Source: an uncultured Gammaproteobacteria bacterium (GTDB taxonomy: Bacteria > Pseudomonadota > Gammaproteobacteria > Steroidobacterales > XN24). From it: DNA of 64,000 bases. How positions within the stretch are numbered: position 1 is the stretch's first letter; each line of letters starts with the position of its first letter. The translations under genes and the position numbers were made by a program. This document shows, piece by piece, positions 2-40,804 of this stretch. Under the pieces are notes generated by a model, which did no database searches, had not been told where the DNA came from, and worked only from the letters and a program-made list of their open reading frames with translations. Where the stretch lies: NCBI GenBank assembly GCA_963809565.1, contig CAWEKE010000001.1, positions 239,452-303,451 of the forward strand. Direction: 5' to 3'.

Positions 2-304
2 CAGGGTCTGCACAATCACCAGAACGCGTCCTGGTCAGGGATCTTCTGCGTCGATCCCGGTGACAGCCCCGAGCAACGGCCGGACAGCGGCCTGGTGCGC
101 TTCCACGACCCGCGTTTTTGCAGCGCGTTTCATGCCGAAGCCGGAAACATGGGGCTGGACATGCCATACAACCACGGCGGATTCGACGTACATCACCGCG
201 CCGGACGGCTGGTGATGTTCCCCTCGTTCATGATGCACGAAATCTTCCCCTACCAGGGCGAGCGTCCGCGAATCGTCATCGCCTTCAACTGCTCGGTCAA
301 TTAG
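2..304 (+). CDS. TIGR02466-type 2OG-Fe(II) oxygenase-like protein, C-terminal part (5' end lies outside the window)
   Basis: Frame 2 is open from the window edge to TAG 302-304. The translation reads ..QGLHNHQNASWSGIFCVDPG...GRLVMFPSFMMHEIFPYQGERPRIVIAFNCSVN. It shows the same H-x-H...SG and ..vMFPS.l.H.v......R.gI.FN pattern as the complete paralogue at 61384-62067. Confidence 0.7.
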   Translation, partial: QGLHNHQNASWSGIFCVDPGDSPEQRPDSGLVRFHDPRFCSAFHAEAGNMGLDMPYNHGGFDVHHRAGRLVMFPSFMMHEIFPYQGERPRIVIAFNCSVN

Positions 305-1935
305 TGGCAACGCCTCCGGACCCGCGGCGGCTTATCCGTGCGCTGGCAGCCGAGGCCGTCAACGATCCGGCCGCCGCCATGGGCCGCTGTCGGCAGATCC
401 TGCAGCGGGCGCCGGCGAGCCTGCCGGTGCTGTGTATCGCGGCCGGCATCCAGAGACGCAGCGGCAAATTTGCCGAAGCTGCCGAACTGCTGGCGCGCGC
501 CGCAGCGGTCGACGCCGAGGCTTCGCCGGTGTTTGCCGAGCGCGCCGCGCTGGCCATGTCCTGTCAGGACTTCGAACTTGCCGCGCAGAGCCTCCGCGCG
601 CTGTTACAGCAGCATCCCGGGCAATCGGATTCGTGGTTCAACCTGGGCCTGGCGGAAGAGCAGCGCGGACGAGTTCAGGCTGCGATCGAGGCATTTGAAA
701 ACGCACTGAATCTGGCGCCGGACGGGTACCCGGCAGCCGGCGCCAGACTGGCTATGTTACTGGCCACGGTCGGTCGCGACGCCGATGCGCGGCAACGCGT
801 CGATCAGGCTCTGGCGGCAGACCCGGACCAGGTCGAAGCCCGCTACGCGCTGGGCATGCTGTTGCTGGCCGAAGGCAGGACGGAGCAGGCGCTGGCTCAG
901 TTCCGGCAGTGTGTGGCACGCCAGCCGGGGCTGGCCGGCGCATGGCAGCAACTGCTCGAGTGCCGCCGCATAGAAGATCCCGACGATCCCGAGTTGGCCG
1001 CGGCGCGTGCGCTTCTCGACCAGCCTGATGTCAGTCCCGCCGAGCGCGAACAACTGGCGATGGCTGTGGGCAAGGCGCTTGATGACCTGCACGACTACGC
1101 AGCCGCATTCGACTGCTTTCACCAGGCCAAACGTTCCAGGCGCAAGCGCTTGCCGGATTTCGACCGCGAGGCCTGGCGCGCAGCTACCGATGCCCGCATC
1201 GCAGCGCCGGTGCCAGCCTCGCCCTTCGCGCCCGGGGCGGCCGTTCAGCCGCTGTTTATCGTCGGCATGCCCCGCTCCGGCACGACGCTGGTGGATCAGA
1301 TCCTCACCGCGCATCCGCAGGCTGAAGGCGTCGGCGAACTCGCGTTTTTCGACCAGGCGGCAGAGCGGTTCTTTGCTGCGGGCCTGGAGCCCGACGCCGG
1401 GGCCGCGTTGCGAGCGGATTACTTGCGCCTACTGACCGCGACCGGGGCAACGGTGGTCAGTAACAAATACCCGGCGAACTTCCGCAACATGCCCTTGCTG
1501 CGCTGGCTGATGCCGGAAGCGCGCTTTGTGCACCTGCGCCGCAGCGCGCTGGATACCTGCCTGTCTGTCTATCTCCAGGACTTTCCGCTGGGCAACCTGT
1601 ACGCCAACGATCTGGAAGACATCGCTGCCTATTACGGCGACTACCGCAGGCTGATGACGCACTGGGCCGGGCGCAAGGATGATGTGCTGGAACTGACCTA
1701 CGAGGCGCTACTGAACGACCAGGCCGGTGTCACCCGACGATTGCTGGACTTTTGTGGTCTGGACTGGGACCCGGCGTGTCTGGACTTTGCCAGTAACCCG
1801 CGTCCGGTCGGAACGCTGAGCCGCTGGCAGGTGCGGCAGCCTATCTATGCGTCGTCGGTAGGCCGCTGGCGGCACTATGAAGCGCAGCTGGAGCCGCTGA
1901 TCAGAGCCCTGGGGCCCTGGGCGGATTCAGCCTAG
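304..1935 (+). CDS. TPR repeat + TPST-like sulfotransferase fusion (paralogue ST1)
   Basis: N-terminal Ala/Leu-rich TPR-like repeats (e.g. WFNLGLAEEQRGRVQAAIEAFENALNLAP). C-terminal sulfotransferase motifs: FIVGMPRSGTTLVDQILTAHP (5'-PSB loop), RFVHLRRSALDTCLSVYLQDF (3'-PB), GLDWDPACLDF, SRWQVRQPIYASSVGRWRHY. Start taken as GTG 304, which shares 1 nt with the upstream TAG; ATG 379 is an alternative. The track start at 118 would overlap the upstream gene. Confidence 0.85.
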   Translation: MATPPDPRRLIRALAAEAVNDPAAAMGRCRQILQRAPASLPVLCIAAGIQRRSGKFAEAAELLARAAAVDAEASPVFAERAALAMSCQDFELAAQSLRALLQQHPGQSDSWFNLGLAEEQRGRVQAAIEAFENALNLAPDGYPAAGARLAMLLATVGRDADARQRVDQALAADPDQVEARYALGMLLLAEGRTEQALAQFRQCVARQPGLAGAWQQLLECRRIEDPDDPELAAARALLDQPDVSPAEREQLAMAVGKALDDLHDYAAAFDCFHQAKRSRRKRLPDFDREAWRAATDARIAAPVPASPFAPGAAVQPLFIVGMPRSGTTLVDQILTAHPQAEGVGELAFFDQAAERFFAAGLEPDAGAALRADYLRLLTATGATVVSNKYPANFRNMPLLRWLMPEARFVHLRRSALDTCLSVYLQDFPLGNLYANDLEDIAAYYGDYRRLMTHWAGRKDDVLELTYEALLNDQAGVTRRLLDFCGLDWDPACLDFASNPRPVGTLSRWQVRQPIYASSVGRWRHYEAQLEPLIRALGPWADSA

Positions 1936-3849
1936 CTGCTGACCACCGGTTTCCGCCAGCTCGCCCAGCGGGCCTAACCAGTCGGCATAATGGCGCCAGC
2001 GGCCGATGGACCGCTGATGCAGGGGTTCCCTTACCTGGGCGTGACTCGCCGTTGCCGTCACCCGCTGCTGCGTGCTGAACTCCAGACACGCCGGATCCCA
2101 GTCCAGACCGCAGAATTGCAGCAGCTCGAGCAGGACCGGTTGCGGGGCCGTCACCAGACGCTCGTAATCCAGCGCAAATACCGGCGAATAATCTGCACAC
2201 CACTTCAGCATCAGCTGGCGATAGTGCGCCAGATAGCTGCTCAGCCAGTCCAGCCGCGTGGCAAATCCCAGTGCCTGATCCGCGAAATCGGTGAACAGGC
2301 ACGACAAGCCGGTATCGCGCAGGTCGCGACGGCAATGCACGATCCGGGCGTCCGGAAACACGCGGCGGATCAGCGGCAGATACCGGAAGTTCAACGGCAT
2401 CTTGTCGCTGATCAGTCGCGTGCCGGTCCCGGATGCCGGCAGACGACGGCGGTATTCATCGCCGAGCCGGCCAAGCAACGCCGGTCGTTCGTCCTCGCTG
2501 GCGCCGATAACCCGATGCACCAGCTCGCCGAAAAACGGCAACTCTCCCGCGCCGTGCACGCCCGGATGAGCCGCCAGCATTTGCTCCAGCAAGCTGGTGC
2601 CCGACCGCGGCAGGCCGATGATGAACAGCAGATCTGCGCCACCCTGACCAGCCGGCGTCTGTCCGGCCAGACGCTCGATCAAACGCGCCTCCCGGATCTG
2701 GGCGCCGGGGTCGAACGTCGCCGGTGTCAGCGCATTGGCCTGCTGATACCAGTCCCAGGCCTGGGCAAAATCGCCGAGCTCGTCACACACGTCACCGAGG
2801 CTGAAACAGAATGCACGACGACTGGAGCCTTCGGCCGGGATCGCCTCGGTGAGAATCGGCCGGGCTCGGGCAGGATCGCCAAGCCGACGCCACAAGCGAG
2901 CCTTCACCAGTGCCGGACCCGGCCGTTGCCGCGCCTGCGCGTCAAGGGTTTCGAGACTGTCCAGCCCGGCCTGGTATCGGCCTTGCCATTCCAGCAGCTC
3001 CGCTCGCCCCACCAGCGCATCCATGTTCCCTGGCATGAGTTCCAGCGCACGCTCGTATGCGGCTCCGGCCTGCGTGTACTCACCCACCGCCTGCAAGGTC
3101 ATCGCCAGACCGGCCTGCCAGCCGGCATGTTCGGGGTCGGCATCCACCGCTGCGCGCCAGGCGGAGAGGGCTTCGGTGAGCCGTCCCTGCTGTTTGCGCA
3201 GCCCGCCCAGCAGCGCGAGCCCGGCGCCATCAGCCGGGCGTCGCCGGAGCACCTCGGCAAGCGTCTGTTCCGCGGTGGCCAGATCGCCGCATTCGATACT
3301 GGCGCCGGCCAGGTTGGTCAACGTCCCGGGATCATCCGGTCGGTGAGACAAGCTGTGTCTGAAGCAGGCCAGCGCTTCCTCATACCTGCCCTGTTCCATC
3401 CGCAGGATGCCGTATTCGTTCCACGCCGGAGCGTGTCCAGGCGCTATTGCGACCGCTTGCGCGAGGGCCTGTTCAGCGATCTCAAGCCGGCCGGCCGCGT
3501 GCTCCAGCTGGCCCTGATAGAAAGTCGCATCGGCCGTCACCCGCGGGTCGCTCCTTGCTTCCGCGAAACACTCCGCTGCCTCACCGGTTTTGCCCTGTTG
3601 CATCAGCACGCGACCGAGCGTGAGGCACGCCGGGCCGTCCTTCCTTGCCTCCACGCAGCGCCGCGCGAGCCCTTCTGCCTGCTCGAGTTCACCGAGTTCA
3701 GCCGACGCCATCGCGGCCAGCAACAACAGATCCGGCTGGCGCGGATCAGACGCCAGCAAGCGACGATAGACCTCCAGCGCAGCCTCGGGCCGGCCATCGC
3801 GATGCCACTGCCTGGCCGAAGCCAGTTCGTCTCCGGGTTTAGTCGCCAT
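1927..3849 (-). CDS. TPR repeat + TPST-like sulfotransferase fusion (ST2)
   Basis: 640-aa ORF with N-terminal TPRs. Motifs: FIIGLPRSGTSLLEQMLAAHPGVHGAGEL, RIVHCRRDLRDTGLSCLFTDF, GLDWDPACLEF, SHAQVREPLHQRSIGRWRHY. Its ATG shares one nt with the stop codon of ST3 (TGATG at 3847-3851). Confidence 0.9.
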   Translation of the reverse strand: MATKPGDELASARQWHRDGRPEAALEVYRRLLASDPRQPDLLLLAAMASAELGELEQAEGLARRCVEARKDGPACLTLGRVLMQQGKTGEAAECFAEARSDPRVTADATFYQGQLEHAAGRLEIAEQALAQAVAIAPGHAPAWNEYGILRMEQGRYEEALACFRHSLSHRPDDPGTLTNLAGASIECGDLATAEQTLAEVLRRRPADGAGLALLGGLRKQQGRLTEALSAWRAAVDADPEHAGWQAGLAMTLQAVGEYTQAGAAYERALELMPGNMDALVGRAELLEWQGRYQAGLDSLETLDAQARQRPGPALVKARLWRRLGDPARARPILTEAIPAEGSSRRAFCFSLGDVCDELGDFAQAWDWYQQANALTPATFDPGAQIREARLIERLAGQTPAGQGGADLLFIIGLPRSGTSLLEQMLAAHPGVHGAGELPFFGELVHRVIGASEDERPALLGRLGDEYRRRLPASGTGTRLISDKMPLNFRYLPLIRRVFPDARIVHCRRDLRDTGLSCLFTDFADQALGFATRLDWLSSYLAHYRQLMLKWCADYSPVFALDYERLVTAPQPVLLELLQFCGLDWDPACLEFSTQQRVTATASHAQVREPLHQRSIGRWRHYADWLGPLGELAETGGQQLG

Positions 3850-5555
3850 CAGGCATTATCTTCCACCTGCTCAAGCAACTGTGCCAATGGCGCCAGGTGT
3901 TGCGCGTAGTCTTTATGGCGGCCGACCGCTGAAGTGTAGATCGGTCGTTGTACCTGCTCGTAGCTGGCCGTCGCGATAATCGGCTCAGCGACCGCGGCCG
4001 GACCTGCAGTGATCGACGGTGCGTCTGCGACACAGGCCGCATCCCAGTCCAGGCCAATAAAATCCAGCAACGCGCGGACCGTGCTTTCGGGCTCAGCCAC
4101 CAGCGACTCGTAGTTCAGCTCGAACAGGCCCACATCCAGCGTGGCCCGCCAGTGCCTCATCAGGCGCCGATAGTCAGCATAGTACGCAGCAATGTCCGGC
4201 AGCCGCCGGCTCCAGGCCAGAGCGGGGGCGCTGAAGTCCTGGCAAAAACAGGACAGCGCGACATCCATCGGCTCGCGCCGCAGGTGGATGATCCGGGCCT
4301 TGGGAAACAACACCTGGATCAAGCCGAGATGAAGAAAGTTAGCCGGCATCTTGTCAGTCACGCGTAAATGCGACCCGGCGCCAATCGAGGCCAGATAGGA
4401 CCGGGCCTCGTCACGCCACCGGGCTGCCGGGACCCGGCTCGTGATCAGCGCCGGATCCGGCGCCGGCCTCGAGCCGCGCAGACGTCGCTCGATATCGCCG
4501 ATACCGGTCGATTCACCGCCAGCATGGATCGATTGATGACGCGACAATATGCGCTCCACCAGGGATGTGCCCGAGCGCGGCATGCCGACGATGAACACCG
4601 GGGCATCGCTGTCGCTGCCGCGGTTCTGCAAGGAATGCAGGGTATCCCGGGTCCAGGTCTGCCGGATCGCAGCAACCCGAGCCCGATGCCGCTCGCAGTC
4701 GAACCCGCCAGGCAGCGCGGCGTTGGCTCGACAGTAGGCTTCGAATGCGGCGTCGAACTCGCCTGCGTCATGGTGCATATCGCCCCTGGCAAACAGCCAG
4801 CGTGCCCGCTGATGACTGGTCAATGTGTCCGGGGTCAACGACTCCAAAATCGCGCGCGCTGCTTCCGGATGCCCCGTCCGGCGCAACAGACGGGCATAGA
4901 CCAAAGCCATCTCGGGAGTACGGCCCTCGGCGGGCCCGTTTGCCCCGGTTGTCATCAACGGCTCGAGCAGCGCCAGGCCATGACGCGGTTGTCCACGCAC
5001 TTCATATTGCGCGGCCAATGCAGTCAGCGCCTCGACATGCCCGGGAGACAGCGCCAGCACGCTCTCCAGTTCTGCCCTTGATTCATCGAATCGCCCCTGG
5101 ATCTGCCATACGCCGGCCCGGCCAACGCGCGGCTCCACGTTACCGGGGGCCAGCGTCAAAGCGCGTTCGTAGGCATCCAGCGCCCGTTGGTAGGCGCCGG
5201 CAGCATGGCAGACCACGCCCAGCCGATACCACAGCCGGGGTCTCCCCGGCGTCTGCTCCAGCGCTTTCTCCAGTAAACGTATTGCGGCATCGAATTGTCC
5301 GGCAGTCATGGCCAGCGCAGCAGCGGTGTCGATCACGCGAGGATCGCCGGGGGCTCTGGCGCGTGCAGTGTCCAGGTCCGCTTTAGCCGCATCCACGCGC
5401 CCGGCACGCAAGTGCAGTTCTGCGCGCGCGCACAGCGCGGACATCGGCAGTGCGTCAGCGGGCAGCAGGCCCAGATCCTGCTCTGCCTCGCGCAGGCGTC
5501 CCGCGCGCAGATGCGCCATGGCTTGTTCCAACCTGGCGGAATCAGCGCGTTCCAT
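3849..5555 (-). CDS. TPR repeat + TPST-like sulfotransferase fusion (ST3)
   Basis: TPR N-terminus. Motifs: FIVGMPRSGTSLVERILSRHQSIHAGGES, RIIHLRREPMDVALSCFCQDF, GLDWDAACV, SYEQVQRPIYTSAVGRHKDY. Start chosen at ATG 5555 (MERADSARLEQ..), a 14-nt overlap with the ST4 stop; the track start at 5633 is the maximal ORF. Confidence 0.85.
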   Translation of the reverse strand: MERADSARLEQAMAHLRAGRLREAEQDLGLLPADALPMSALCARAELHLRAGRVDAAKADLDTARARAPGDPRVIDTAAALAMTAGQFDAAIRLLEKALEQTPGRPRLWYRLGVVCHAAGAYQRALDAYERALTLAPGNVEPRVGRAGVWQIQGRFDESRAELESVLALSPGHVEALTALAAQYEVRGQPRHGLALLEPLMTTGANGPAEGRTPEMALVYARLLRRTGHPEAARAILESLTPDTLTSHQRARWLFARGDMHHDAGEFDAAFEAYCRANAALPGGFDCERHRARVAAIRQTWTRDTLHSLQNRGSDSDAPVFIVGMPRSGTSLVERILSRHQSIHAGGESTGIGDIERRLRGSRPAPDPALITSRVPAARWRDEARSYLASIGAGSHLRVTDKMPANFLHLGLIQVLFPKARIIHLRREPMDVALSCFCQDFSAPALAWSRRLPDIAAYYADYRRLMRHWRATLDVGLFELNYESLVAEPESTVRALLDFIGLDWDAACVADAPSITAGPAAVAEPIIATASYEQVQRPIYTSAVGRHKDYAQHLAPLAQLLEQVEDNA

Positions 5556-7563
5556 GTTCGTAGCCGGCGGCGTCCAGGGCCTCGGCAAACGGCTCCAGGT
5601 GCTCACGGTAGTGACGCCAGGCGCCGACTTCACGTGAGTTGAGCGGCTGCCGGACCGGCGTATCGGCTGCGCTGGTCGCTACCCCGGGTTGATAGAATCG
5701 CAGGCAGGCCGGATCCCATTCCAGACTCAGAAATTCCACCAGCTGCCGACTGTAAGATTCCGGGCTTGTGACCAGTTCTTCATAGCGCAACTCAAACATC
5801 GCCAGCCCGCTGACATCACGCCAATGCCGCATCAGGCGCCGATACAGCTGGAAGTAGCGCACCATCGACTCGAGCTCGAAGGTAAAAGCCAGGCTGCGAC
5901 CAGCAAAGTTTTTCAGCCAACAGCGCAGGACCAGGTCCAGCGGGTGGCGCAGGCAGTGAATCACATGGGCATCAGGAAACAGCATCTCGATCAGACCCAG
6001 ATGGACAAAATTGAACGGCATCGTGTCGGTGACCCGCGCCACGTCGCCTGCGCGGGCATCAAGGCCTGCGAGATAGCGGCTGGCATGACGCTCGAGCTGC
6101 CGCCGATCAAGGCGCGCAACACCATCCGGCCAACCACCGCTCTCGCGGCCCAGGGCCATGCTGATGTCGCCGATCATGGTCAGCTCGCCGGCGCCGTGCA
6201 CCTGCGGATGGCTGCACAGAATCTGTTCCGCCAGCGACTTGCCGCTACGCGGCATGCCGACGATGAATACCGGCCTCGAACTCGGGGTCCGGGCGCGTGG
6301 TAATGCCGCCATGGCCGGTGCCGAGAATGCCCGACGGCTGGCCTCCACGGCGCCTTTCAATGCGTCCAGGTCGCGCCCCGGCACGCCGGCTGGCAGCGAA
6401 CGTCGACGCCATTCGTTGGCCTCGAGCGCGGTGTCCCATGCCTGCTGATACTCGCCACTCTCGTCCAGCACACGGGCCAGCGAAAAGCGTAACTGCGCCT
6501 GGCCCTCGGCCCCGATATGGGTCGACTCCAGTGCAGTCTCCAGCACCCGCCTGGCCTCCTCCAGCCGCCCCGTGTTGCGCAACAACCGCGCCTGGATCGG
6601 AGCCACCACGGCCGGATCGGGAGCAGGCCCGGTATTCAGCATGGCCAGGGCCTCATCATGGCGGCCGCGGTTATCCAGCCACGCCGCCAGGCCCGATCTC
6701 GCCTGGTCGTGGCCGGGGTTTACTGCCAGCGCGCGACGGAAATACTCGCCAGCCTGCGCGGGTTCACCCTGCGCCTGCAGCAGCTTCGCCAGGTTGGCCA
6801 GCGCATCGGCATCCTGCGGGTCTTTTTCCAGCGCTGTGCGGTAACACTCCTCGGCCTGATCAAACCGGCCCTGCAGCTGCAGCGATGCGCCCAGCCAGGT
6901 CCAGCCGACTGCGTTGACCGGATCCTGCTCCAGAAAGCGGCGCAACGCGCGTTCCGCATCGGAGTAACGGCCCAGCGCGTTGAGCACTCCGCCAAGTTGT
7001 AACCAGCCCGCGGCAAGCTCGGGTCGTTGCCGGGTCAATGTCTGCAGCGAACTCAATGCCTGCCCGGTGTCGCCTCTGCCCATTGCGGCCATGGCCAGAT
7101 TGAAATGCGCGGCCGCCAGCGCGGGATCGAGGTCAAGCGCCTGCTGAAACAGGTCCGCGGCCCGGTCCAGATTCCCCAGATTGCCGATGATCTCCCCGGC
7201 CTGATTATTGATCTGCGCCGTGCCCGGCTCCATGGCTACCGCAGACTCGACCTGCTCGATTGCGGCCGCGGTGTCCCCAAGCGAGGCCAGGCTTCGTGCC
7301 AGACTCAGTCGCGTCGGTGCGGAATCCGGATCCAGCCGAAGCGCTCGGTTTAACGCGTCTCTCGCGGCATCGGCTTGTCCCAAACGCTGTAGCAGCTCTC
7401 CGCTCAAACGCCAGGCGCCGGCTTCCTCCGGCGCGTCGGCAAGCGCTTGTTTACAAAGCTCCAGCGCCTGCGCGAGCTGCCCTTGCCTGGCCAGCGTCAT
7501 CGCCTGCCGGACGGTGCGGTCGATCGCCTGTGGCGGGACCTGCCTGGGCGCATCCGGGCTCAC
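5542..7563 (-). CDS. TPR repeat + TPST-like sulfotransferase fusion (ST4)
   Basis: 673 aa with a long TPR N-terminus. Motifs: FIVGMPRSGKSLAEQILCSHPQVHGAGEL, HVIHCLRHPLDLVLRCWLKNF, SLEWDPACLRF, VRQPLNSREVGAWRHY. GTG start overlaps the ST5 stop (GTGA at 7560-7563). Confidence 0.9.
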   Translation of the reverse strand: MSPDAPRQVPPQAIDRTVRQAMTLARQGQLAQALELCKQALADAPEEAGAWRLSGELLQRLGQADAARDALNRALRLDPDSAPTRLSLARSLASLGDTAAAIEQVESAVAMEPGTAQINNQAGEIIGNLGNLDRAADLFQQALDLDPALAAAHFNLAMAAMGRGDTGQALSSLQTLTRQRPELAAGWLQLGGVLNALGRYSDAERALRRFLEQDPVNAVGWTWLGASLQLQGRFDQAEECYRTALEKDPQDADALANLAKLLQAQGEPAQAGEYFRRALAVNPGHDQARSGLAAWLDNRGRHDEALAMLNTGPAPDPAVVAPIQARLLRNTGRLEEARRVLETALESTHIGAEGQAQLRFSLARVLDESGEYQQAWDTALEANEWRRRSLPAGVPGRDLDALKGAVEASRRAFSAPAMAALPRARTPSSRPVFIVGMPRSGKSLAEQILCSHPQVHGAGELTMIGDISMALGRESGGWPDGVARLDRRQLERHASRYLAGLDARAGDVARVTDTMPFNFVHLGLIEMLFPDAHVIHCLRHPLDLVLRCWLKNFAGRSLAFTFELESMVRYFQLYRRLMRHWRDVSGLAMFELRYEELVTSPESYSRQLVEFLSLEWDPACLRFYQPGVATSAADTPVRQPLNSREVGAWRHYREHLEPFAEALDAAGYEHGTR

Positions 7564-13317: not shown

Positions 13318-14970
13318 TTATCGTTCCCCGGGGGCGTCGCGGCCAGCGCCGGCCGCCGCGGGACGGAATACCGGGTGATCCTCGGGCCAGGCACGTGACG
13401 CCGGCTGCTGCCGGCGATAGGCCTCGAGCAACCGTTGGGCCTCCCGGGCCTGCTCCTCGCCCTCGGCTGCAGAGGCCTGATACACACGGGTCTGCATTTG
13501 CACCGCTTGCTGCCAGCGGCCGTTGGCCGCCAGAGCCATGGCCAGGGTTTCGGCATGAGCATAATCGGGTCGTGCCCGGAATATCGTGTTAGCGTATTCC
13601 AGGGCCAGGCGCAGGCGCTCCGCCGTGGCACCAGGGCAGCTCGCGTAGCTGCGCGCCAGGGCCTGCATGACTTCCCCGCTGCCAGGCTGAGCCTCCAGCG
13701 CGCTTTCGAACGCATCCAGGGCGCGCGGACAGTTGCCCGAGGCCAGCGCCGCGAGCCCGGCACGATAGGCGAAGATCGCGACCTGCTCCGGAGGCGGCAC
13801 GGCTGCAGCATAGACCGCCAGGGCCTCTTCGTAGCGTTTCATGCGCATCAGCGCATTACCCAGACGCAGACTCGCCAGCGAGTAGCCGGGATCAGCGCTC
13901 AGCGCGGCGCGATAGTCGTCGACGGCGCCCGCCTCATCACCGAGTTCCTCGCGTATCGCGCCCCGCCGGTATCTGGCCGGACCGAAATCCGGATCGATCT
14001 CGAGTGCCCGCTCAAACTCCGCCAGCGCGGCTGCGCTCTGGCCGGTCTGGAGCAGTCCCTGACCGAGACTGACTCGCGCTGCCGCATCGTCGGGGTTGTA
14101 TTCCACGGCGCGCTGGAACTCCATTACCGCTTCGTCCTCGCGGCCGGCACGTGACGCGGCGTAACCGCGCTCCAGATAATATTGGGCGCTGCGTGAACGA
14201 GCGGCCATATCCGCCAGGATGGGATCGGCCACTGCAGGATCGGTGCTGCCCTTGAGCAGCAAATTGCGCTGCGCCTGCTCCACCTGGCCTTGCTGTCGGT
14301 AAGCCATGGCCAGCGGATAACGCAGCCGGTCAGCGCCCGGATCGGCGGTCAGCGCCTGTTCGAAGAAGCTGATCGCCTGCAGGTATTCGCCACGTTCGAG
14401 CGCCACCTGGCCGAGACCCGCCAGCGCCGCCGGCTGGCCCGGTCGGGCCTCCAGCACGGCGGTGAAATCCACTTGCGCGGCATCCAGCTGGCGCCGCTTT
14501 AACTGCACCTGGGCCCGTCGCAGCAAGCCTGGCAGATAAGCCGGATCGAGTCTCAACGCGATTTCGTAGTTCTCCAGCGCCGCGTCAAGCTCGCCGGTCT
14601 CCTGATACAGATAGCCGAGCAGATAGCGCCAGCGGAACTCCTCCGGCTGGTACTTTGCTGCCACGAGATAGCACTGACGGGCCAGCGACTGCAGATGATG
14701 AGCCTGATAAGTCATGCCCAGCTCGCCCCATGCCGCGCCGGTGTTTGCCGGGTCCGCAATGCTGCTGCGGAAGTCCGTGAGCGCCTGAGCCAAAGCCTGC
14801 CGCACACCAGGCTCAAAATCCTCCAGTGCCGGGGCTGGCGGCGCAGCGGGATCAGCCGCGCTCGCCGCGGCGCTCGCTGCGGCACCGGCCGCCAGGCAAA
14901 GCCAGGCGAGGAAAAGCACTGCGCCAGGCTGGCGCAGGCGCCGCGCGGACGGACAGGCCGGCCGGTTCAT
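13318..14970 (-). CDS. secreted TPR-repeat protein with no catalytic domain
   Basis: N-terminal signal peptide (LFLAWLCLAAGAAASAAASA) followed by TPR-like repeats throughout. ATG overlaps the upstream stop (ATGA at 14967-14970). Confidence 0.85.
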   Translation of the reverse strand: MNRPACPSARRLRQPGAVLFLAWLCLAAGAAASAAASAADPAAPPAPALEDFEPGVRQALAQALTDFRSSIADPANTGAAWGELGMTYQAHHLQSLARQCYLVAAKYQPEEFRWRYLLGYLYQETGELDAALENYEIALRLDPAYLPGLLRRAQVQLKRRQLDAAQVDFTAVLEARPGQPAALAGLGQVALERGEYLQAISFFEQALTADPGADRLRYPLAMAYRQQGQVEQAQRNLLLKGSTDPAVADPILADMAARSRSAQYYLERGYAASRAGREDEAVMEFQRAVEYNPDDAAARVSLGQGLLQTGQSAAALAEFERALEIDPDFGPARYRRGAIREELGDEAGAVDDYRAALSADPGYSLASLRLGNALMRMKRYEEALAVYAAAVPPPEQVAIFAYRAGLAALASGNCPRALDAFESALEAQPGSGEVMQALARSYASCPGATAERLRLALEYANTIFRARPDYAHAETLAMALAANGRWQQAVQMQTRVYQASAAEGEEQAREAQRLLEAYRRQQPASRAWPEDHPVFRPAAAGAGRDAPGER

Positions 14971-16757: not shown

Positions 16758-16792
16758 GGCAGACGCTGCCGGCTGTGCTAACCTGCCCGCTC

Positions 16793-17887
16793 ATGAACGG
16801 TCCACATCCGGACTCCATGCCGCCTGGTCAGATGCCGGGCGACCTGCTGCGCGATCTCGCCGACGATCCCGCGTGGTTTCTGCGCGACGTCGACCCGATT
16901 CGTGGCCAGGCGATATTTTCGCCGATGGACGAAGCCAGTTATCAGGCCTCGATCTTCCTCGACAACCGCATCCAACGCGCCGGACCGCGCGACCTCGTGG
17001 TGGACCTGGACGGGCTGCTGCGCCTGGCCCACAAGCTGAATCTGCCGCCGCGCCCGATCCACTATATTTTCCACATCGGGCACTGCGGGTCGACCCTGAT
17101 ATCCACCATCCTCGGCGGGCTCGACGGTTTTCTTGCCTTGCGCGAACCACCGATGCTGATGGGGCTCTCTCGCAGCATGCGCCATCTGGATCAAACCGGG
17201 TTCCCGATCTCCCGCGAGCGCTGGGAGCAACTGTCGCAACTGGCGCTGAGGCTGCTGGGCAGGACCTGGCGGCCGACGCAAACCGTGCTGGTCAAGCCCA
17301 CCAGCCACGCCGGAAACCTGATTCCGCTGTTGATGGGTTTCACCGGGCGGGAACGGGCCCTGCTCCTGCACGTTGGCCCGGAGACGTATCTGACGACCAT
17401 GCTGCGCGCGGAAGTGCGGCGGGAGACGATGCTGTTCGCGAGAGACTTCCGGCTACGCGACTTCGTCACCTTGATGCCGGAAATGCCAGACTCGGTCGAG
17501 GCCTATCGGCCCGGGGAGCTGGCCGCGATGAGCTGGCTGTTGCACGCGCGCGAGCTGGCCGCCGTGATGGAGGCCGGCGCCTTGCACGAGCGCACGCTGG
17601 GACTGGACTTCGATCGCTTTCTCGCGGATCCGGAGCCATCGCTGCGACAAGTGTGTGAGTTCTTCTCGCAGCCCGCTGACGACGCAACATTGCAACGACT
17701 CCTCGCGATTCACGGCAGGCGCAGCGCCAAGGACCCCGGACGCAGTTATGACCACGCCCGGCGGCAGGCCGATCTGGGTGCGGCCAGCAAGACGTACGCG
17801 GAGGAAATCAGCGCCGGGCTGCGCTGGGCTGAACGGATCCAGACTCAGGGTGGTCCGTTCAGCAGGCTGCGCGAGCGCCTGGGCTAG
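16793..17887 (+). CDS. hypothetical protein, possibly a divergent sulfotransferase-like / P-loop-like protein
   Basis: The only recognisable element is IHYIFHIGHCGSTLISTILGG..LREPP, which resembles a PAPS 5'-PSB loop (h-h-G-x-x-R/C-S/G-G-S/T-T-L). I see no clear 3'-PB motif. Start chosen at ATG 16793 to avoid overlapping the divergent gene. Confidence 0.4.
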   Translation: MNGPHPDSMPPGQMPGDLLRDLADDPAWFLRDVDPIRGQAIFSPMDEASYQASIFLDNRIQRAGPRDLVVDLDGLLRLAHKLNLPPRPIHYIFHIGHCGSTLISTILGGLDGFLALREPPMLMGLSRSMRHLDQTGFPISRERWEQLSQLALRLLGRTWRPTQTVLVKPTSHAGNLIPLLMGFTGRERALLLHVGPETYLTTMLRAEVRRETMLFARDFRLRDFVTLMPEMPDSVEAYRPGELAAMSWLLHARELAAVMEAGALHERTLGLDFDRFLADPEPSLRQVCEFFSQPADDATLQRLLAIHGRRSAKDPGRSYDHARRQADLGAASKTYAEEISAGLRWAERIQTQGGPFSRLRERLG

Positions 17888-17924
17888 CGCGATGCGCGCG
17901 ACAGGGCTGAAACAGCCTTGACGA

Positions 17925-19733
17925 TCAGACCAGGCCGTGGCTCCAGGGCTCGTTCAGGGCCTCGGCCAGCGGCTGCAGCCAACGCGAATAATTGCGCCAG
18001 CGGCCGACGCTGCTGGTGTAGATCGGCTGCCGTACCTGTTCGAAGCTGGCCGTGCGCACCAGCCGCGTGCTGCGATGGAAGTCGAGGCAGGCCTGATCCC
18101 ATGGCAGACCGTTGAACTCGATCAGGGCTCGGGCCTCGCGTGCCGGGTCTTCGATCAGTCGTTCGTAATCCAGCACGTAAATCGGGAGTGAAAGATGTTG
18201 CTGCCAGTGCTCCATCAGCCGCCAGCAACCCTGCTGCTGCAGGCCGATGTGGCGCAGGTCGCGCGCGAAATCCATGCCTTCGCTGCGAAAGTTCTGCTGG
18301 AAACAGGACAAACCGGTGTCCATCGGGTCACGCCGGCAATAGACCACCCGCGCACCCGGCAGCAGGACCTGGATCAGGCCGAGATTCAGGTAGTTGGCCG
18401 GCAACTTGTCGGTTATCCGCGCTGGCCCGCGATCCCAGCCCGGAGCGGTCCGCAGATACTCATTGGCCAGCCGTTCGAGCACCCCGGCTTCGACATGCTG
18501 CAGGCACTCCGGCCAGCGCGTGGCCACGTCGCCTTGGCTTAACCGGCGGGGCAAACGGTAAATATCCGTACGCTCGCCGCCGGCCCGGACCTGCGGATGA
18601 CTGGCCAATATCTGCTCCGCGAGCGACGTCCCCGAGCGGGGCATGCCGACAATGAACACCGGCGCCATCGAATCGACCCCGGATGACGGCATCTGCTGCA
18701 GCCGTTCAGCGGTAAAGAAGGCACACAGTCGTTCAACCGTCGTCCGGAAACCCTCCGGATCAAAACGGCTGGGCAGACAGTCGTTGGCGCGAACGAATTG
18801 CTCGAACGCTCCCGCGTAATCGCCGCTGGCGTCGAGCACCTCACCGAGGGTTGCGCTGATCGTTGCGCGGTCCTGATCGGAAGCATGGGTAGCGTCAAAC
18901 CGCTGCAGCAGCGCTTTGGCTTCGTCGCAACGATCCAGGCGGCGCAGCATCCTTCCGGCGGTAATCACTGCCCACGCGGGCGGCGCGGATGCCAGAACCG
19001 GCTTCAGCAGCTCCAGCACGGCTGCGTATTCGCGCTGTAATTCCAGGGTCCAGATCAGGCCGTGATGCGCCACTTCGTGGGTCGGATCGGACTCCAGCAC
19101 CTCGCGGAAGCAATCCGCGGCGGCAGCCTGATCGTCAAGCCGATGATAGACAAGGCCGAGCGCTGCGCGCGCATCATGATTATCCGGCGCACGCCCGATG
19201 CAACTCAGATAAGTTGCCCGGGCCTGCTCGAGGCAACCCTGTCCGCGCAATGCGTCTGCGTATTCGCGCAGGACTTCCGGATCTTCCGGCATGGCCTTGA
19301 GGACTGGCTCGAGCAGCTCGCCGGCCTCCTCCGCCCGACCCTGCAACAAGTATATTGTCGCCAGCAAACGCCGGCCGCGATGCGCCCGGGCCGAGCCCGC
19401 CGAGACCACAGCCATCGCCTGGCGACAGGCTCCGGCAGCATCTTCCAGCTTGCCCAGAGTGCGCTGCACGTGGGCCAGATTAAGCCATGGGTCGGGTGTA
19501 TCGGGATCCAGCTTCACCGCGGTAAGCAGCGCACGCTCTGCGTCCGGCAAGCGGCCGAGATTATTCAGCGCGCGGCCCAGCGCATTCCATGCCGATGCCA
19601 TCGCCGGGGCTGCCAACACCAGTTGCTGCAGGAGTTTTTCCGCCGCCGCCGGATCACGCTGCCGGATCAGCGCCTCCGCCTGGCTTAACTGTTCGGCCGC
19701 CGCCACGGTCGGTGCTCCATCGCCGTTGCTCAT
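17925..19733 (-). CDS. TPR repeat + TPST-like sulfotransferase fusion (ST8)
   Basis: 602 aa with TPRs. Motifs: FIVGMPRSGTSLAEQILASHPQVRAGGE, RVVYCRRDPMDTGLSCFQQNF, GLPWDQACLDFH, SFEQVRQPIYTSSVGRWRNY. Confidence 0.9.
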   Translation of the reverse strand: MSNGDGAPTVAAAEQLSQAEALIRQRDPAAAEKLLQQLVLAAPAMASAWNALGRALNNLGRLPDAERALLTAVKLDPDTPDPWLNLAHVQRTLGKLEDAAGACRQAMAVVSAGSARAHRGRRLLATIYLLQGRAEEAGELLEPVLKAMPEDPEVLREYADALRGQGCLEQARATYLSCIGRAPDNHDARAALGLVYHRLDDQAAAADCFREVLESDPTHEVAHHGLIWTLELQREYAAVLELLKPVLASAPPAWAVITAGRMLRRLDRCDEAKALLQRFDATHASDQDRATISATLGEVLDASGDYAGAFEQFVRANDCLPSRFDPEGFRTTVERLCAFFTAERLQQMPSSGVDSMAPVFIVGMPRSGTSLAEQILASHPQVRAGGERTDIYRLPRRLSQGDVATRWPECLQHVEAGVLERLANEYLRTAPGWDRGPARITDKLPANYLNLGLIQVLLPGARVVYCRRDPMDTGLSCFQQNFRSEGMDFARDLRHIGLQQQGCWRLMEHWQQHLSLPIYVLDYERLIEDPAREARALIEFNGLPWDQACLDFHRSTRLVRTASFEQVRQPIYTSSVGRWRNYSRWLQPLAEALNEPWSHGLV

Positions 19734-19814: not shown

Positions 19815-20432
19815 TCATCGCAGGGGATAAGAGAAGCGGAAATCGTCGTCAGGATCGCGGAAATTCACGTAGCTGGTAAGAATGTACTTGTCCCCGGATA
19901 CCGGCGCCTCGCCGACATGCTCATACATCCAGTAGGGAGGCATGATCACCAGCCTTCCGGTGCGCGCTGCGACCCGGGTCCCCAATATCGGAAACACCGT
20001 TTCACCGCCCTCATCCACGGTATTCAGGTACCACAAAAAGGCCACGGTTCGCACCGCAGACCGGTGATCGAACACATCCACATGCAACGGGAAGTGGTGC
20101 GGCTCATCACCGCCGGCCAGGTACTTCTTGACCTTCAGATGTTCAAACGCCCGCGGCGCCTTGCGCGCCAGCATTCCGGCTACCGGCAAGGTCGCGTACT
20201 CGGCCAGGTGGCGCACCATGTTTTCGATCAGCGCGCGCTCGACTTCACGCCATTTCGGATTCGGGTTGCGGGTGATCACATACTCGACCCAGGTTCGCTG
20301 CCGGGCGCGCTGGAACTGTTCAGCCGGATCGGCTTCGACCTGCTCGATAATGCGGGCGCACAGCTCCGGATCCAGCGCATCGTCATAGACCCTGATCAGT
20401 TCCGACAGGCGTGGGTCTGAGCTATCGTTCAT
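19815..20432 (-). CDS. 2OG-Fe(II) oxygenase, prolyl-4-hydroxylase-like (P4Hc type)
   Basis: Motifs HHFPLHVDVF (HxD), RTVAFLWYLNTVDEGGETVFP, ARTGRLVIMPP...YEHVGEAPVSGDKYILTSYVNF (distal His, G.KY..t.w). This is the classical P4H-type jelly-roll signature. Its start overlaps the ST9 stop by 11 nt. Confidence 0.85.
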   Translation of the reverse strand: MNDSSDPRLSELIRVYDDALDPELCARIIEQVEADPAEQFQRARQRTWVEYVITRNPNPKWREVERALIENMVRHLAEYATLPVAGMLARKAPRAFEHLKVKKYLAGGDEPHHFPLHVDVFDHRSAVRTVAFLWYLNTVDEGGETVFPILGTRVAARTGRLVIMPPYWMYEHVGEAPVSGDKYILTSYVNFRDPDDDFRFSYPLR

Positions 20433-22551
20433 AGCCGAAGTACTCGAGGTGGGGATCGAGAGCCGGCATCAGCGGCTCCATATAGTGAGCATATGCCTGC
20501 CACCGGCCTCGGGAGCGCTGGTAGAGCGCCTCGGTCACCTGATGATAACTGTTGGTATTGATGTGGCCACGCTGGCGTGCGCGCTCGGCATAGTCCAGGA
20601 CTCGGGGGTCCCACTCCAGACCGAGGAAGTCGAGCAGCTTGCGCGTCTCCGCTTCCAGGTCATCAATCAGGGACTCATAGCGCACCACGTGGACGTTCAG
20701 CGGCAGGCGCCGGTTGTATAACTGCCACAGGCGCATGGTCTTGTCGTAGATACGGGTCGAATCCTCCAGCGTATGGAAATTCGCGAAGGCGTCGCTGACC
20801 GTATAGTGCTGCATGAAGTTTGACAGCACCACATCGCAGGGATGGCGTTGGCAGAAGACGAAGCGCGCGTCCGGAAACAGACGCCAGAGCATCCCGACCT
20901 GAATGGTGCGGATCGGCATCTTGTCGACAATCAACGTGTCCGCGTGGCCAGCCATGAACGGATCGATTGCATCGAAATACAGCTTCCTCAGCCGGGCGAA
21001 CGTCTGCTCATCAAGCTGCGCCAGCGCGCGCGGGAAACCATCTGGCAACTCCTGCAGAGCCTCCAGCGCGGGCAGGATGGTGACCTGCTCTTCTACAGTG
21101 GTGATGCCCGGGTGACTATCGAGAACGACATCCGTCAGCGTCGTGCCCGAACGCGGGAATCCGAGCATGAACACCGGCGACGGGCGCTCGCAGCGCGGGG
21201 CCTCGGTCCACTCTTCCAGGCGGGTCGTGCTGAAAAACTCGTCCAATTCGTCAAGCAGGGCCAGAAACCGCTCCGGTCTTGCCTCCCGGGCCCGGGGGGT
21301 CGCCCGCGCCAGTTCATTGGCCGCGGTGAAATGTTCATAGGCTGCGTCCGCATTCCCGTGACGATCGTGCAGGTAACCAAGCTGGTAATGGAATTGCTCC
21401 GCCAGACGCGGATCCATCTTCGTGGTGTCGAAGCGCATCAGGCGCTGTAACCCCAGAGTCGGTTCACCGCGGCGACGATCGCCCTTGGCCGCTTCCAGAT
21501 TCAGTCGCGGGTGATCCGGCGCCAGTTGCAGGCCCTTTTCCACCATCTGATCAAGCTCTTCGAGCCTGTTTGCTTCCTCGTACAGCGCGGCCAGTTCTGC
21601 GTAGGCCGCGGGCGAGTGAGGGTCGAGTTCCAGCGCCCGCTTGAAGCTGGCCTCGGCCTCATCGCTGCGGCGCTGCTCATTGAGCACCAGGCCCAGGTTC
21701 AGGTGGACCGATGCATTGTCCGGATCCAGCTGCAGCGCGTGGCGGTAACAGATAGCGGACTTCTTGAAGTTGCGCCGCGTGTGATACGCAATACCCAGGT
21801 TGATCAGCGTTTCGGTGTGGCCGGGCTTAAGGCTCAGCGCATGCTCAAATTGCGCGATAGCTGCATCCACGTCGCCCTGACTCATCAGTACCGTGGCCAG
21901 ATTTCGCCTGGCTGAAGCGAAATCCGGGTCGATGGCCACCGCATGTTCAAACGCATCCCGGGCCTCGTCGAGTTCACCCATCGCGCGCAGGGCATGACCG
22001 AGGTGATCATAGGCAACCGCAAACTCCGGCCGGATCAAAACCGCGCGCCGGAACGCATCCGCCGCTTCCGCCAGACGCCCCATGTTGTTAAACGCGCGGC
22101 CAAGATTGTCATAGGCGCCCGCCAGATTGGGGTTGATTTCCAGCGCCTTGACGAAAAACGGAATCGCCTCCTCCGGTTTGCCCTGCCGCAGCAGGGTTTC
22201 ACCGAGATTGCTGTGCGCCATCGCGAACTCGGGCTGCAGCTGGATCGTCTGCTGATACATCGCCGCGGCGTCGTCCAGTCTGTCCCGCGCCTTCATCAGA
22301 TTACCCAGGCTGTTGATAAAGCTGGCTTTTAACGGATCGAGCTGGATCGCGCGCCGGATCAGTCGCTCGGCGTCTTCCAGCCGTCCCTGGCGGGCGTCGA
22401 TATTGCCCAGGCAATGCAGGGCATCCGCATGCGCCGGTTCGCGCTTGAGCACCTCCAGATACTGGGCCTTGGCCGACTCCAGATCACCCTCATGCTGGGT
22501 CTGCTGGGCCTGATGATAAAGCTCTGCCGTAGATAGGGACTGAGCAGCCAT
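20422..22551 (-). CDS. TPR repeat + TPST-like sulfotransferase fusion (ST9)
   Basis: Long TPR N-terminus. Motifs: FMLGFPRSGTTLTDVVLDSHPGITTVEE, RFVFCQRHPCDVVLSNFMQHY, GLEWDPRVLDY, SYHQVTEALYQRSRGRWQAY. Start chosen at ATG 22551 (GGAG about 12 nt upstream); the maximal ORF reaches 22608. Confidence 0.85.
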   Translation of the reverse strand: MAAQSLSTAELYHQAQQTQHEGDLESAKAQYLEVLKREPAHADALHCLGNIDARQGRLEDAERLIRRAIQLDPLKASFINSLGNLMKARDRLDDAAAMYQQTIQLQPEFAMAHSNLGETLLRQGKPEEAIPFFVKALEINPNLAGAYDNLGRAFNNMGRLAEAADAFRRAVLIRPEFAVAYDHLGHALRAMGELDEARDAFEHAVAIDPDFASARRNLATVLMSQGDVDAAIAQFEHALSLKPGHTETLINLGIAYHTRRNFKKSAICYRHALQLDPDNASVHLNLGLVLNEQRRSDEAEASFKRALELDPHSPAAYAELAALYEEANRLEELDQMVEKGLQLAPDHPRLNLEAAKGDRRRGEPTLGLQRLMRFDTTKMDPRLAEQFHYQLGYLHDRHGNADAAYEHFTAANELARATPRAREARPERFLALLDELDEFFSTTRLEEWTEAPRCERPSPVFMLGFPRSGTTLTDVVLDSHPGITTVEEQVTILPALEALQELPDGFPRALAQLDEQTFARLRKLYFDAIDPFMAGHADTLIVDKMPIRTIQVGMLWRLFPDARFVFCQRHPCDVVLSNFMQHYTVSDAFANFHTLEDSTRIYDKTMRLWQLYNRRLPLNVHVVRYESLIDDLEAETRKLLDFLGLEWDPRVLDYAERARQRGHINTNSYHQVTEALYQRSRGRWQAYAHYMEPLMPALDPHLEYFGYER

Positions 22552-40800: not shown

Positions 40801-40804
40801 TTGC

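Follow-up and report, generated by a model that had tools for sequence, protein, structure and literature searches.

The closest relatives of known structure of the proteins considered here are the animal tyrosylprotein sulfotransferases (TPSTs), type II Golgi membrane proteins with a luminal catalytic domain and no tetratricopeptide repeats (TPRs). In bacteria, the donor 3'-phosphoadenosine 5'-phosphosulfate (PAPS) is made in the cytoplasm. OGT and SPINDLY have another layout, in which an N-terminal superhelical TPR array precedes a nucleotide-donor transferase domain, and FlmG is a bacterial TPR-fused protein glycosyltransferase. The bacterial enzyme RaxST, modelled on TPST2 by its authors (PMC6637879), is cytoplasmic and PAPS-dependent and is reported elsewhere to act in the cytoplasm on RaxX and Omp1X, an outer-membrane protein, sulfating both ahead of their export (PMC4892823). 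RaxST is a single short enzyme without TPRs, and its gene accompanies those of a precursor peptide that bears a leader and of a type I exporter that contains a peptidase. Two lanthipeptide sulfotransferases, SslST and SscST, have also been characterised, and MbnS has been proposed for methanobactin (PMC11143521). Iyer et al. (2010) predicted bacterial operons that hydroxylate and then sulfate co-encoded secreted proteins, as well as TonB-receptor neighbourhoods in which Syn9-gp52-like oxygenases, sulfotransferases and SapC would make siderophore-like metabolites (PMC2938197); TPR-fused TPST-like enzymes and multi-paralogue arrays do not appear in that paper. Here, we describe nine TPR-fused, TPST-like sulfotransferase genes (ST1 to ST9) in a 64,000-nucleotide stretch from an uncultured gammaproteobacterium (contig CAWEKE010000001.1, positions 239,452 to 303,451; the window), which may form a protein O-sulfation system. 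An earlier note on this DNA had named RaxST as the only characterised bacterial enzyme of the kind; SslST and SscST belong beside it.

The earlier note had recognised nine open reading frames (ORFs), each an array of TPRs followed by a catalytic domain, between positions 304 and 22551. All nine stand exactly where it put them and encode 543-709 aa from the start codons that it chose; in three, the longest ORF begins farther upstream (118 rather than 304, 5633 rather than 5555, and 22608 rather than 22551). The GC content of 59-66% across the window produces many long shadow ORFs on the opposite strand, but the nine sulfotransferase ORFs are real nonetheless. In every one, Pfam assigns PF13469 (Sulfotransfer_3) to the C-terminal ~190-250 residues (115-160 bits against a gathering cut-off of 27 bits, E 1e-33 to 1e-46, profile positions 1-216 covered) and many TPR families to the N-terminal 320-463 residues, which is the combination that the earlier note had expected. 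No NCBIfam model scored above its cut-off on the array proteins, which gave sub-threshold generic TPR matches only.

304..1935, plus strand: ST1, TPRs and a canonical sulfotransferase site (PF13469 E 2.7e-36)
1927..3849, minus strand: ST2, TPRs and a canonical TPST-like site (PF13469 E 1.3e-33)
3849..5555, minus strand: ST3, TPRs and a canonical TPST-like site (PF13469 E 7.6e-42); alternative GTG start at 5633
5542..7563, minus strand: ST4, TPRs and a variant sulfotransferase domain (PF13469 E 6.6e-36)
7560..9548, minus strand: ST5, TPRs and a canonical TPST-like site (PF13469 E 8.6e-42)
9541..11448, minus strand: ST6, TPRs and a variant domain with the ST4-like K/T/loss signature (PF13469 E 5.3e-33)
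11426..13297, minus strand: ST7, TPRs (about ten helix pairs, residues 2-340) and a TPST-like domain (PF13469 E 1.5e-46)
17925..19733, minus strand: ST8, TPRs and a canonical TPST-like site (PF13469 E 1.8e-37)
20422..22551, minus strand: ST9, the longest TPR array (about 460 aa) and a canonical domain (PF13469 E 8.7e-35)

The array is broader than 304-22551, the extent first proposed for it, and is truncated by the left edge of the window, with ST1 as the final gene of a plus-strand operon that begins outside. The nine array genes, or about twelve when neighbours are counted, form a conserved block. As the earlier note had it, none of the nine proteins has a signal peptide: we found no hydrophobic N-terminus, membrane segment or internal hydrophobic segment in them, and their maximum Kyte-Doolittle value (15 residues, first 60 aa) is 0.2-1.6, against 1.7-3.1 in the exported proteins encoded nearby. 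In contrast to the luminal TPSTs, the window enzymes are soluble and predicted to be cytoplasmic, and each carries a TPR superhelix of 320-460 aa.

A consensus of the nine catalytic domains reproduces the four motif blocks of the earlier note, from which ST4 and ST6 depart. Block 1 reads PVFIVGMPRSGTSLxEQILxxHPxxxGAGE, block 2 DKMPxNFxxLGLIxxLFPxARVIHCRRxPxDTxLSC, block 3 YExLVxDPExxxRxLLDFxGLxWDPACL and block 4 TASxxQVRxPxYxxSxGRWRHY. Searched against the PDB, a profile of the nine domains matched TPST1 at 5.6e-24 and TPST2 at about 6e-22 (range 6e-24 to 7e-22) over ~220 of 250 positions, and every other class of sulfotransferase lagged behind by at least 11 orders of magnitude. The CurM/olefin-synthase (OLS) domains followed at ~1e-11, cytosolic sulfotransferases (SULTs) at 6e-8 or weaker and the heparan-sulfate 3-O-sulfotransferase (3-OST) at 1e-5. 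The ST7 domain alone also retrieved tick and human TPSTs first (E 7e-7). When its AlphaFold2 model (pLDDT 95.1, pTM 0.93) was compared with the PDB by Foldseek, the top 13 matches were all TPSTs (3AP1, 5WRJ, 8W5Z; TM 0.63-0.72), followed by OLS/CurM (TM 0.55-0.57), with the rest lower and carbohydrate sulfotransferases at 0.53 or less. TPST1, TPST2 and the tick TPST (5WRI, 5WRJ, 3AP1, 8W5Z) are thus the best match by both profile and fold, at an identity of only about 20%, and the earlier note was right to place the domain nearer to TPSTs than to the carbohydrate or cytosolic classes. The second-best matches, CurM/OLS (4GBM, 4GOX), are bacterial Sulfotransfer_3-type domains that are likewise fused to other modules; however, they act on beta-hydroxyacyl-acyl carrier protein (ACP) within polyketide synthases (PKSs), the window contains no PKS or ACP, and their scores lie far below those of the TPSTs.

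The same comparison bears on a different acceptor, namely a glycan or glycolipid (exopolysaccharide, capsule or lipopolysaccharide [LPS] core) sulfated at the cytoplasmic face of the inner membrane, with the TPRs tethering the enzymes to the assembly machinery and exported FG-GAP and TPR proteins handling the polymer outside. Characterised bacterial sulfotransferases are mostly glycan or lipid enzymes, such as NodH, LpsS, KpsS and Stf0. The carbohydrate classes are nevertheless distant from the array by both profile and fold, and we regard a glycan acceptor as quite unlikely.

The active site extends the likeness to TPSTs. HMMER alignment equates Arg of the P-loop, Glu of GAGE and Lys of DKMP with TPST2 Arg78, Glu99 and Lys158. 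The equivalents of these residues are invariant in the ST1, ST2, ST3, ST5, ST7, ST8 and ST9 orthogroups, in up to six genomes, as are those of Arg183, Ser191 and Ser285, reportedly further active-site positions in the TPST2 structure. The residue at the position of TPST2 Arg101, beside the catalytic Glu and presumably a substrate contact, differs between paralogues. Seven of the nine have both the P-loop PRSGT[ST] of the element that binds the 5'-phosphosulfate (5'-PSB) and the R...S motif of the 3'-phosphate-binding (3'-PB) element intact. The assignment of the first two blocks to these elements therefore stands for those seven and fails in part for ST4 and ST6, in which the elements are altered and the 3'-PB Ser is lost. 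Besides these motifs and the Arg/Glu/Lys(/Ser) set, the window domains and TPSTs have a C-terminal S..QV..P motif in common. A paper on the tick TPST reports Arg78, Glu99 and Lys158 as catalytic residues, with a loss of activity in their Ala mutants (PMC10951654). We predict activity for the seven paralogues that have the TPST catalytic residues. At 39-43 kb of the window, two sulfotransferases without TPRs belong to PF00685 and are closest to plant and animal small-molecule SULTs and Teg12, indicating that TPST-likeness is specific to the TPR-fused set.

ST4 and ST6 carry a common set of substitutions at these positions. Relative to TPST2, ST4 changes T81 to K, K158 to T, S191 to R and S285 to A or G, and keeps these changes in all five orthologues. 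The joint change extends to ST6 and all of its orthologues: the second P-loop Thr is replaced by Lys and the Lys158 equivalent by Thr, and both the 3'-PB Ser (Arg in ST4, Ala in ST6) and the Ser285 equivalent are lost; none of these four positions varies in the remaining seven orthogroups. Their motifs accordingly read GMPRSGKS and GLPRAGKS, DT for DK, LRC and LAC for LSC, and a last block without Ser, while the Arg residues of the PAPS-binding motifs (PRSGKS and PRAGKS) are retained. Because this signature is conserved at 48-79% overall identity, the two genes are not decaying pseudogenes, and they probably encode altered or non-catalytic partner subunits; the relocated Lys may restore activity. 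The gene order alternates between canonical ST7, variant ST6, canonical ST5 and variant ST4 (5542-13297); among canonical members, the catalytic domains of ST5 and ST7 are the most alike (48%), and ST4 and ST6 group together in the tree described below. From the shared four-residue signature and that unbootstrapped tree, duplication of a two-gene canonical-plus-variant unit (ST7-ST6 and ST5-ST4) can reasonably be inferred, and canonical/variant heterodimers among ST4 to ST7 are possible.

The TPR arrays were assessed with a full-length AlphaFold2 model of ST7 (pLDDT 93.5, pTM 0.83), in which 20 helices form about ten TPR-like pairs (residues 2-340), followed by a linker helix and an alpha/beta domain. 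Its best fold matches in the PDB are SPINDLY (7Y4I, E 2e-13) and the OGT TPR (1W3B and 6EOU, TM to target 0.57-0.65), two superhelices that select protein clients, making the OGT-like layout that the earlier note had proposed more than a remembered analogy. The likeness is one of layout and not of family: Pfam found no PF13844 (GT41) match in the nine proteins, and the catalytic part is a P-loop sulfotransferase, in contrast to the GT-B glycosyltransferase of OGT and SPINDLY. The TPR regions are 27-36% identical between paralogues and 35-93% identical between orthologues. They are usually slightly less conserved than the catalytic domains, although those of ST7 and ST6 are more conserved among close relatives. 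Arrays that are conserved between orthologues and distinct between paralogues fit paralogue-specific partners.

Syntenic relatives (loci L001, L004, L009, L008, L002, L032 and L034) contain orthologues with identities from 40% to 90%. Related metagenome-assembled genomes (MAGs) share the order DUF4826-ST9-2OG-ST8-(FGa-TPRa)-ST7-ST6-ST5-ST4-ST3-ST2-ST1, with ST1 convergent, where 2OG is a 2-oxoglutarate-Fe(II) oxygenase gene and FGa and TPRa encode the exported proteins described below. Exceptions are few: L009 is without ST3, and L002 is missing ST6, the fastest-evolving member of the array. ST9 has the most divergent of the canonical catalytic domains. Each locus protein best matches one window paralogue with the second best far behind, which identifies 1:1 orthologues, and catalytic domains of different paralogues are only 24-48% identical. 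In a neighbour-joining (NJ) tree without bootstrap, every orthogroup is monophyletic, and TPR-sulfotransferases of Bradyrhizobium, Burkholderiaceae and Geminicoccales representatives interleave with the window orthogroups. The 1:1 orthology, the identities and the tree indicate that the array is an old, maintained set of distinct subfamilies and together rule out a recent in-situ tandem duplication, the origin for which the earlier note had proposed a catalytic-domain phylogeny as the test. One relative stands apart taxonomically: L008 (LJTR01000038.1), labelled Phycisphaerae bacterium SG8_4, holds a full-synteny array of gammaproteobacterial type with 42-63% identity to the window, so that either the contig is mis-binned or the locus was laterally transferred into a planctomycete.

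Beyond these relatives, the family is very large. Among 1.84 billion proteins, the catalytic-domain profile retrieved 17,547 cluster representatives (clustering at 50% identity) with E <= 1e-30 and a further 16,000 between 1e-30 and 1e-10; TPSTs would score about 1e-20 in this search, scaled from their PDB score. Many of the top matches carry two to six sulfotransferase domains divided by TPR arrays (P0155, P0158, P0160), P0155 with four tandem TPR-sulfotransferase units, which suggests that the paralogues of the window act together, on one substrate or complex. P0160 (1769 aa) combines TPRs and two sulfotransferase domains with a GT41 (OGT-family) domain (E 6e-54). The architecture is already named in annotation and extremely common: homologues P0063, P0069 and P0096 appear at NCBI as 'tetratricopeptide repeat-containing sulfotransferase family protein', a name that fits the window proteins. 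Both the enzyme class, a PAPS sulfotransferase of TPST/RaxST-like type, and the TPR-then-catalytic layout are known kinds. What is new is a conserved, syntenic multi-paralogue system with canonical and rewired members, oxygenase fusions, exported propeller and TPR partners and a link to TonB receptors. In full-text literature searches we found no paper on TPR-fused sulfotransferases, on the function of PF13759 or on a link between sulfotransferases and FG-GAP/ASPIC proteins, and no functional study of such arrays, in agreement with the earlier note that their function is undescribed.

The genes in and around the array include oxygenases and exported proteins, which, like the TonB link in relatives, were absent from the earlier note and widen the options to hydroxylate-then-sulfate chemistry and metabolite tailoring.

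2..304, plus strand: 3' end (100 codons) of a stand-alone PF13759/TIGR02466-type 2OG-Fe(II) oxygenase, truncated by the window edge (PF13759 E 4e-14 in frame 2)
13318..14970, minus strand: TPRa, an exported TPR-only protein with a signal peptide (Pfam TPR families only), between FGa and ST7
14967..16757, minus strand: FGa, a CRTAC1-like beta-propeller with six FG-GAP repeats and UnbV/ASPIC (PF13517 E 1.5e-53, PF07593 E 2e-14)
16712..17887, plus strand: orfX, a conserved 391-aa protein without TPRs (PF13469 E 0.009)
19815..20432, minus strand: 2OGa, a 205-aa 2OG-Fe(II) oxygenase (PF13640 E 3e-8)
22772..23368, plus strand: orfY, a secreted 198-aa protein with a Pro/Ala/Thr-rich linker (44-68% in L001, L004, L009 and L008)
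23372..23839, minus strand: DUF4826 protein (PF16108 E 2e-22)
23861..34771, minus strand: a packed string encoding, in transcription order, a CN-hydrolase, a TPR+FG-GAP lipoprotein (1096 aa), a membrane penta-haem+TPR protein (937 aa), FGb (FG-GAP/ASPIC) and TPRb (exported TPR)

The spacing from one gene to the next is -23 to +20 nt, so that starts and stops overlap or lie side by side, throughout FGa>TPRa>ST7>ST6>ST5>ST4>ST3>ST2 and in ST9>2OGa. Six sulfotransferases, FGa with its FG-GAP repeats and UnbV/ASPIC, and the exported TPRa are thus very probably co-transcribed. ST9 leads a second string, ST9>2OGa>ST8. A promoter and terminator scan of 13-26 kb gave counts not above those of shuffled sequence, and Rfam and tRNA scans of the window returned zero matches.

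Two oxygenases flank sulfotransferase genes directly. The TAG stop of the PF13759 oxygenase overlaps the GTG start of ST1 (TAGTG), and the translation of 2..304 also matches the C-terminus of the L032 orthologue. A second, complete member of this family lies far from the array at 61384-62067 on the minus strand (TIGR02466 E 7e-37). The other oxygenase, 2OGa, has an intact triad (H117-x-D119...H172) and an 11-nt overlap with the end of ST9, and every relative has it at this place, flanked by ST9 and ST8. Among solved structures, it comes closest to prolyl 4-hydroxylases (P4Hs), those of B. anthracis and human C-P4H alpha-2 (E 3.5e-5 to 1.3e-4).

The exported proteins begin with FGa, which has a Sec-type signal peptide, heads the string FGa>TPRa>ST7...ST2 and probably starts at Met-14 (16718). 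Pairs of FG-GAP/ASPIC and exported TPR genes, together with DUF4826, recur beside TPR-sulfotransferases even in relatives at 30-45% identity (L012, L023, L034). The DUF4826 gene accompanies the sulfotransferase array in every related locus examined, and orfY always adjoins it. Within the packed string, the penta-haem+TPR protein (27571-30384, minus strand) has N-terminal membrane helices, five CxxCH motifs (residues 231-434), C-terminal TPRs and a weak cytochrome c554-like match, and its gene has 4-nt overlaps with those of both FGb and the TPR+FG-GAP lipoprotein. The calcium-loop motifs of the FG-GAP repeats in FGa, FGb and the lipoprotein include sites with Tyr in an acidic context, but these are generic fold motifs. 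Tat export of the FG-GAP and TPR neighbours, by which already folded proteins could have been modified, can be ruled out, as the RR of FGa and TPRa is not conserved in orthologues and the signals are of Sec type.

The 1.2-kb gap between FGa and ST8 (16758-17924) is filled by orfX, with orthologues at 68, 59 and 52% in L001, L004 and L009. Hhalign aligned it with the nine catalytic domains colinearly over 175 columns (probability 45%, E 2e-4), and its P-loop, HIGHCGSTL, is missing the 5'-PSB Arg; orfX may be a highly divergent protein of sulfotransferase fold. With this gap accounted for, the array genes overlapping or abutting and no type I exporter present, a system for ribosomally made and post-translationally modified peptides is ruled out for this locus. 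The array gaps leave no room for a precursor-peptide ORF (the largest are 81-220 nt), and Pfam scans of the window found no ATP-binding cassette (ABC) or membrane fusion protein (MFP) exporter genes. The locus differs in both respects from the RaxST system, which it resembles in its bacterial, TPST-like enzymes.

The region to the left of the window was inferred from relatives with ST1 identity of 48-74% (ST1 orthologues in L024, L026, L009 and L002). A gene for a 970-1020-aa fusion of the form TPR-PF13759 oxygenase-TPR-Sulfotransfer_3 lies upstream in L024, L026, L018, L032 and L034. L024 (1549-11542), L026 and L018 share the operon TonB-dependent receptor > fusion > PF13759 oxygenase > ST1, with a receptor of 957 aa. 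Beyond the receptor are an S-adenosylmethionine-methyltransferase-like gene, a further TPR-sulfotransferase gene and a gene for an OmpA protein with thrombospondin type 3 repeats. No TonB receptor is encoded in the window or at the equivalent position in L034, a soil MAG, where a TPR protein with PrmA/PRMT_C domains (20978-21770), a putative further TPR-fused protein-modifying enzyme, adjoins the fusion gene. More distant members of the family sit by SapC (L036) and by TauD and methyltransferases (L035); small ORFs near the L036 sulfotransferase proved to be pieces of one secreted protein.

These operons support the main rival explanation, in which the array tailors a small secreted or re-imported metabolite (peptide-derived, siderophore-like or phenolic) that is hydroxylated, sulfated possibly many times and taken up through TonB, with the TPRs only assembling the complex. 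The array resembles the Iyer neighbourhoods in that 2OG-Fe(II) oxygenases, among them the Syn9-gp52-like/PF13759 type, are linked or fused to sulfotransferases, with TonB receptors in relatives, and siderophore-like products were predicted for those neighbourhoods (PMC2938197). The SapC, TauD and methyltransferase neighbours of distant members, and the rank of the curacin and olefin-synthase acyl-ACP sulfotransferases as second-best structural relatives, point the same way. Neither the 64-kb window nor the syntenic flanks examined, however, contain a nonribosomal peptide synthetase, PKS, ATP-grasp ligase, precursor-peptide ORF or exporter. In the Iyer neighbourhoods, SapC or a tryptophan halogenase often accompanies the receptor; the window encodes neither SapC nor any halogenase, nor a collagen-like or tail-collar protein. 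A metabolite also makes it hard to explain nine or more distinct, long, orthologue-conserved TPR superhelices; the TonB receptor is missing from the equivalent position in L034; and the GT41 fusion, like the PRMT-like and P4H-like partners, speaks for protein acceptors. We consider metabolite tailoring unlikely.

The TonB link is also compatible with the sulfation of imported compounds (for example phenolics from plants or algae, humic substances or peptides) for detoxification or for activation before breakdown, each paralogue serving one compound class. Hydrolases are encoded nearby (the CN-hydrolase at 33668-34771 and an amidohydrolase at 44245-45750), and the relatives are MAGs of which several seem, from isolate names only, to come from soil or sediment, habitats rich in compounds of this sort. 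Yet PAPS is expensive for catabolism, Pfam scans of the locus show no inner-membrane transporter or sulfatase, and the long paralogue-specific TPR superhelices would have no obvious role. Strict 1:1 orthology and a fixed gene order further suggest a machine of fixed parts rather than a flexible battery, and we regard this explanation as very unlikely.

Farther along the window, 39010-43978 holds a second, different sulfation cluster, which looks like a set for modifying lipid A, LPS or another lipid that includes sulfation.

39010-39963 and 41965-42972, minus strand: TPR-less PF00685 sulfotransferases, nearest solved relatives plant steroid/flavonol SULTs and Teg12
39994-40800, plus strand: PF13640 2OG oxygenase
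40805-41902: ELM1/GtrOC1-family putative glycosyltransferase
42986-43978: LpxL-like lipid A acyltransferase
44245-45750: amidohydrolase, beyond the cluster

This cluster, with its two sulfotransferases, putative glycosyltransferase and lipid A acyltransferase, lends some support to a glycan or glycolipid acceptor of the array, and in the L035 relative the family member lies ~8 kb from Wza/Wzz polysaccharide-export genes. The sulfotransferases of the cluster nevertheless belong to another, SULT-like class, and neither the window array nor those of syntenic relatives have a glycosyltransferase, flippase, polymerase or polysaccharide exporter in or next to them. The 739-aa product of 35661-37880 (minus strand) begins with a patatin-like phospholipase domain and ends in an Omp85-type barrel, as do PlpD-like secreted lipases of type Vd. 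The 633-aa product of 48521-50422 (plus strand) joins an N-terminal OmpR/CadC-type winged-helix DNA-binding domain to C-terminal TPRs and is a possible membrane-linked one-component regulator.

Considering sequence and structure models together, the best-supported reading, to which we give about an even chance, is that the array carries out O-sulfation of proteins or peptides, with the TPR array choosing the client, possibly after hydroxylation. Protein O-sulfation is favored because polypeptides are the substrates of the closest characterised relatives of three components (TPST-like domain, OGT/SPINDLY-like TPRs and P4H-like oxygenase) and of families that are fused or adjacent elsewhere (GT41, PRMT-like). 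A client-selector role is favored because the TPR superhelices are paralogue-specific yet conserved between orthologues. Tyrosine is a plausible acceptor from homology, and a hydroxylated residue is equally live given the oxygenase fusions. Candidate clients are the exported products of genes within and near the array.

In the mechanism that we propose, the nine genes would encode cytoplasmic PAPS-dependent O-sulfotransferases, each with its own OGT/SPINDLY-like TPR superhelix that docks a distinct polypeptide client or a distinct stretch of one client. The TPR array would offer a side-chain hydroxyl to the TPST-type site, either that of tyrosine or that of a hydroxy-residue made beforehand by the 2OG-Fe(II) oxygenases of the locus. 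The Glu would act as the base, and the Arg, Lys and Ser residues would stabilise sulfuryl transfer from PAPS. ST4 and ST6, encoded directly downstream of canonical ST5 and ST7, would act as altered or non-catalytic partners. The products are likely destined for the cell envelope, as six sulfotransferase genes lie in one overlapping string with the genes for FGa, the FG-GAP/ASPIC propeller exported by Sec, and the exported TPRa. The coupling to hydroxylation, the substrate class, the TPRs as client selectors and the role of ST4 and ST6 are the parts of this mechanism that we infer, whereas architecture, homology, fold, conserved residues, orthology, synteny, gene packing and fusions were observed.

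Several observations weigh against protein O-sulfation. We identified no candidate client or precursor peptide beyond the exported neighbours. Those neighbours carry Sec-type rather than Tat-type signals and would need to be modified unfolded, before export, a timing that is reported for RaxST with RaxX and Omp1X (PMC4892823), and the FGa-TPRa pair is not always within the array (L009, L008). TPR arrays are able to act purely as scaffolds, and the OGT-like asparagine ladder is partial: Asn-h-[GAS] motifs at 34-residue spacing number four in ST7 and three in ST9 and are sparse or absent in the other paralogues, so we did not use the ladder as support. Sulfotransfer_3 also includes enzymes with non-protein acceptors, such as CurM/OLS on acyl-ACP. 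Finally, the TonB receptor at the head of the ST1-ending operon in three relatives fits metabolite uptake better than protein modification.

A broader and more doubtful extension of protein O-sulfation, which we put forward tentatively, is that environmental proteobacteria possess a cytoplasmic multi-enzyme sulfation system in which the TPRs pick clients, the oxygenases install hydroxyproline-type hydroxyls and exported matrix-like FG-GAP propellers (integrin/CRTAC1-like) are the products. Such a system would be a widespread bacterial post-translational modification, unseen until now, and the prokaryotic forerunner of the TPST/prolyl-hydroxylase toolkit with which animals modify extracellular-matrix proteins.

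Bacterial protein O-sulfation has been thought nearly absent, and the examples that we found are RaxST and a few natural-product enzymes. The family described here is nearer to TPSTs than to any other solved sulfotransferase, is built like OGT and, grouped at 50% identity, numbers at least 17,500 clusters; the literature searches found no study of it. Should the clients be proteins, an entire level of protein modification in bacteria has gone unnoticed, as has what it costs in sulfur in soils and sediments. Should a metabolite or a glycan be the target instead, the locus would still stand for a large and unexplored pathway of sulfation. The array also bears on the origin of the enzymes that modify the animal extracellular matrix (TPST and P4H). 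Its conservation provides an experimental panel of seven canonical and two rewired enzymes with their oxygenase partners, and the exported proteins are the first candidate clients.

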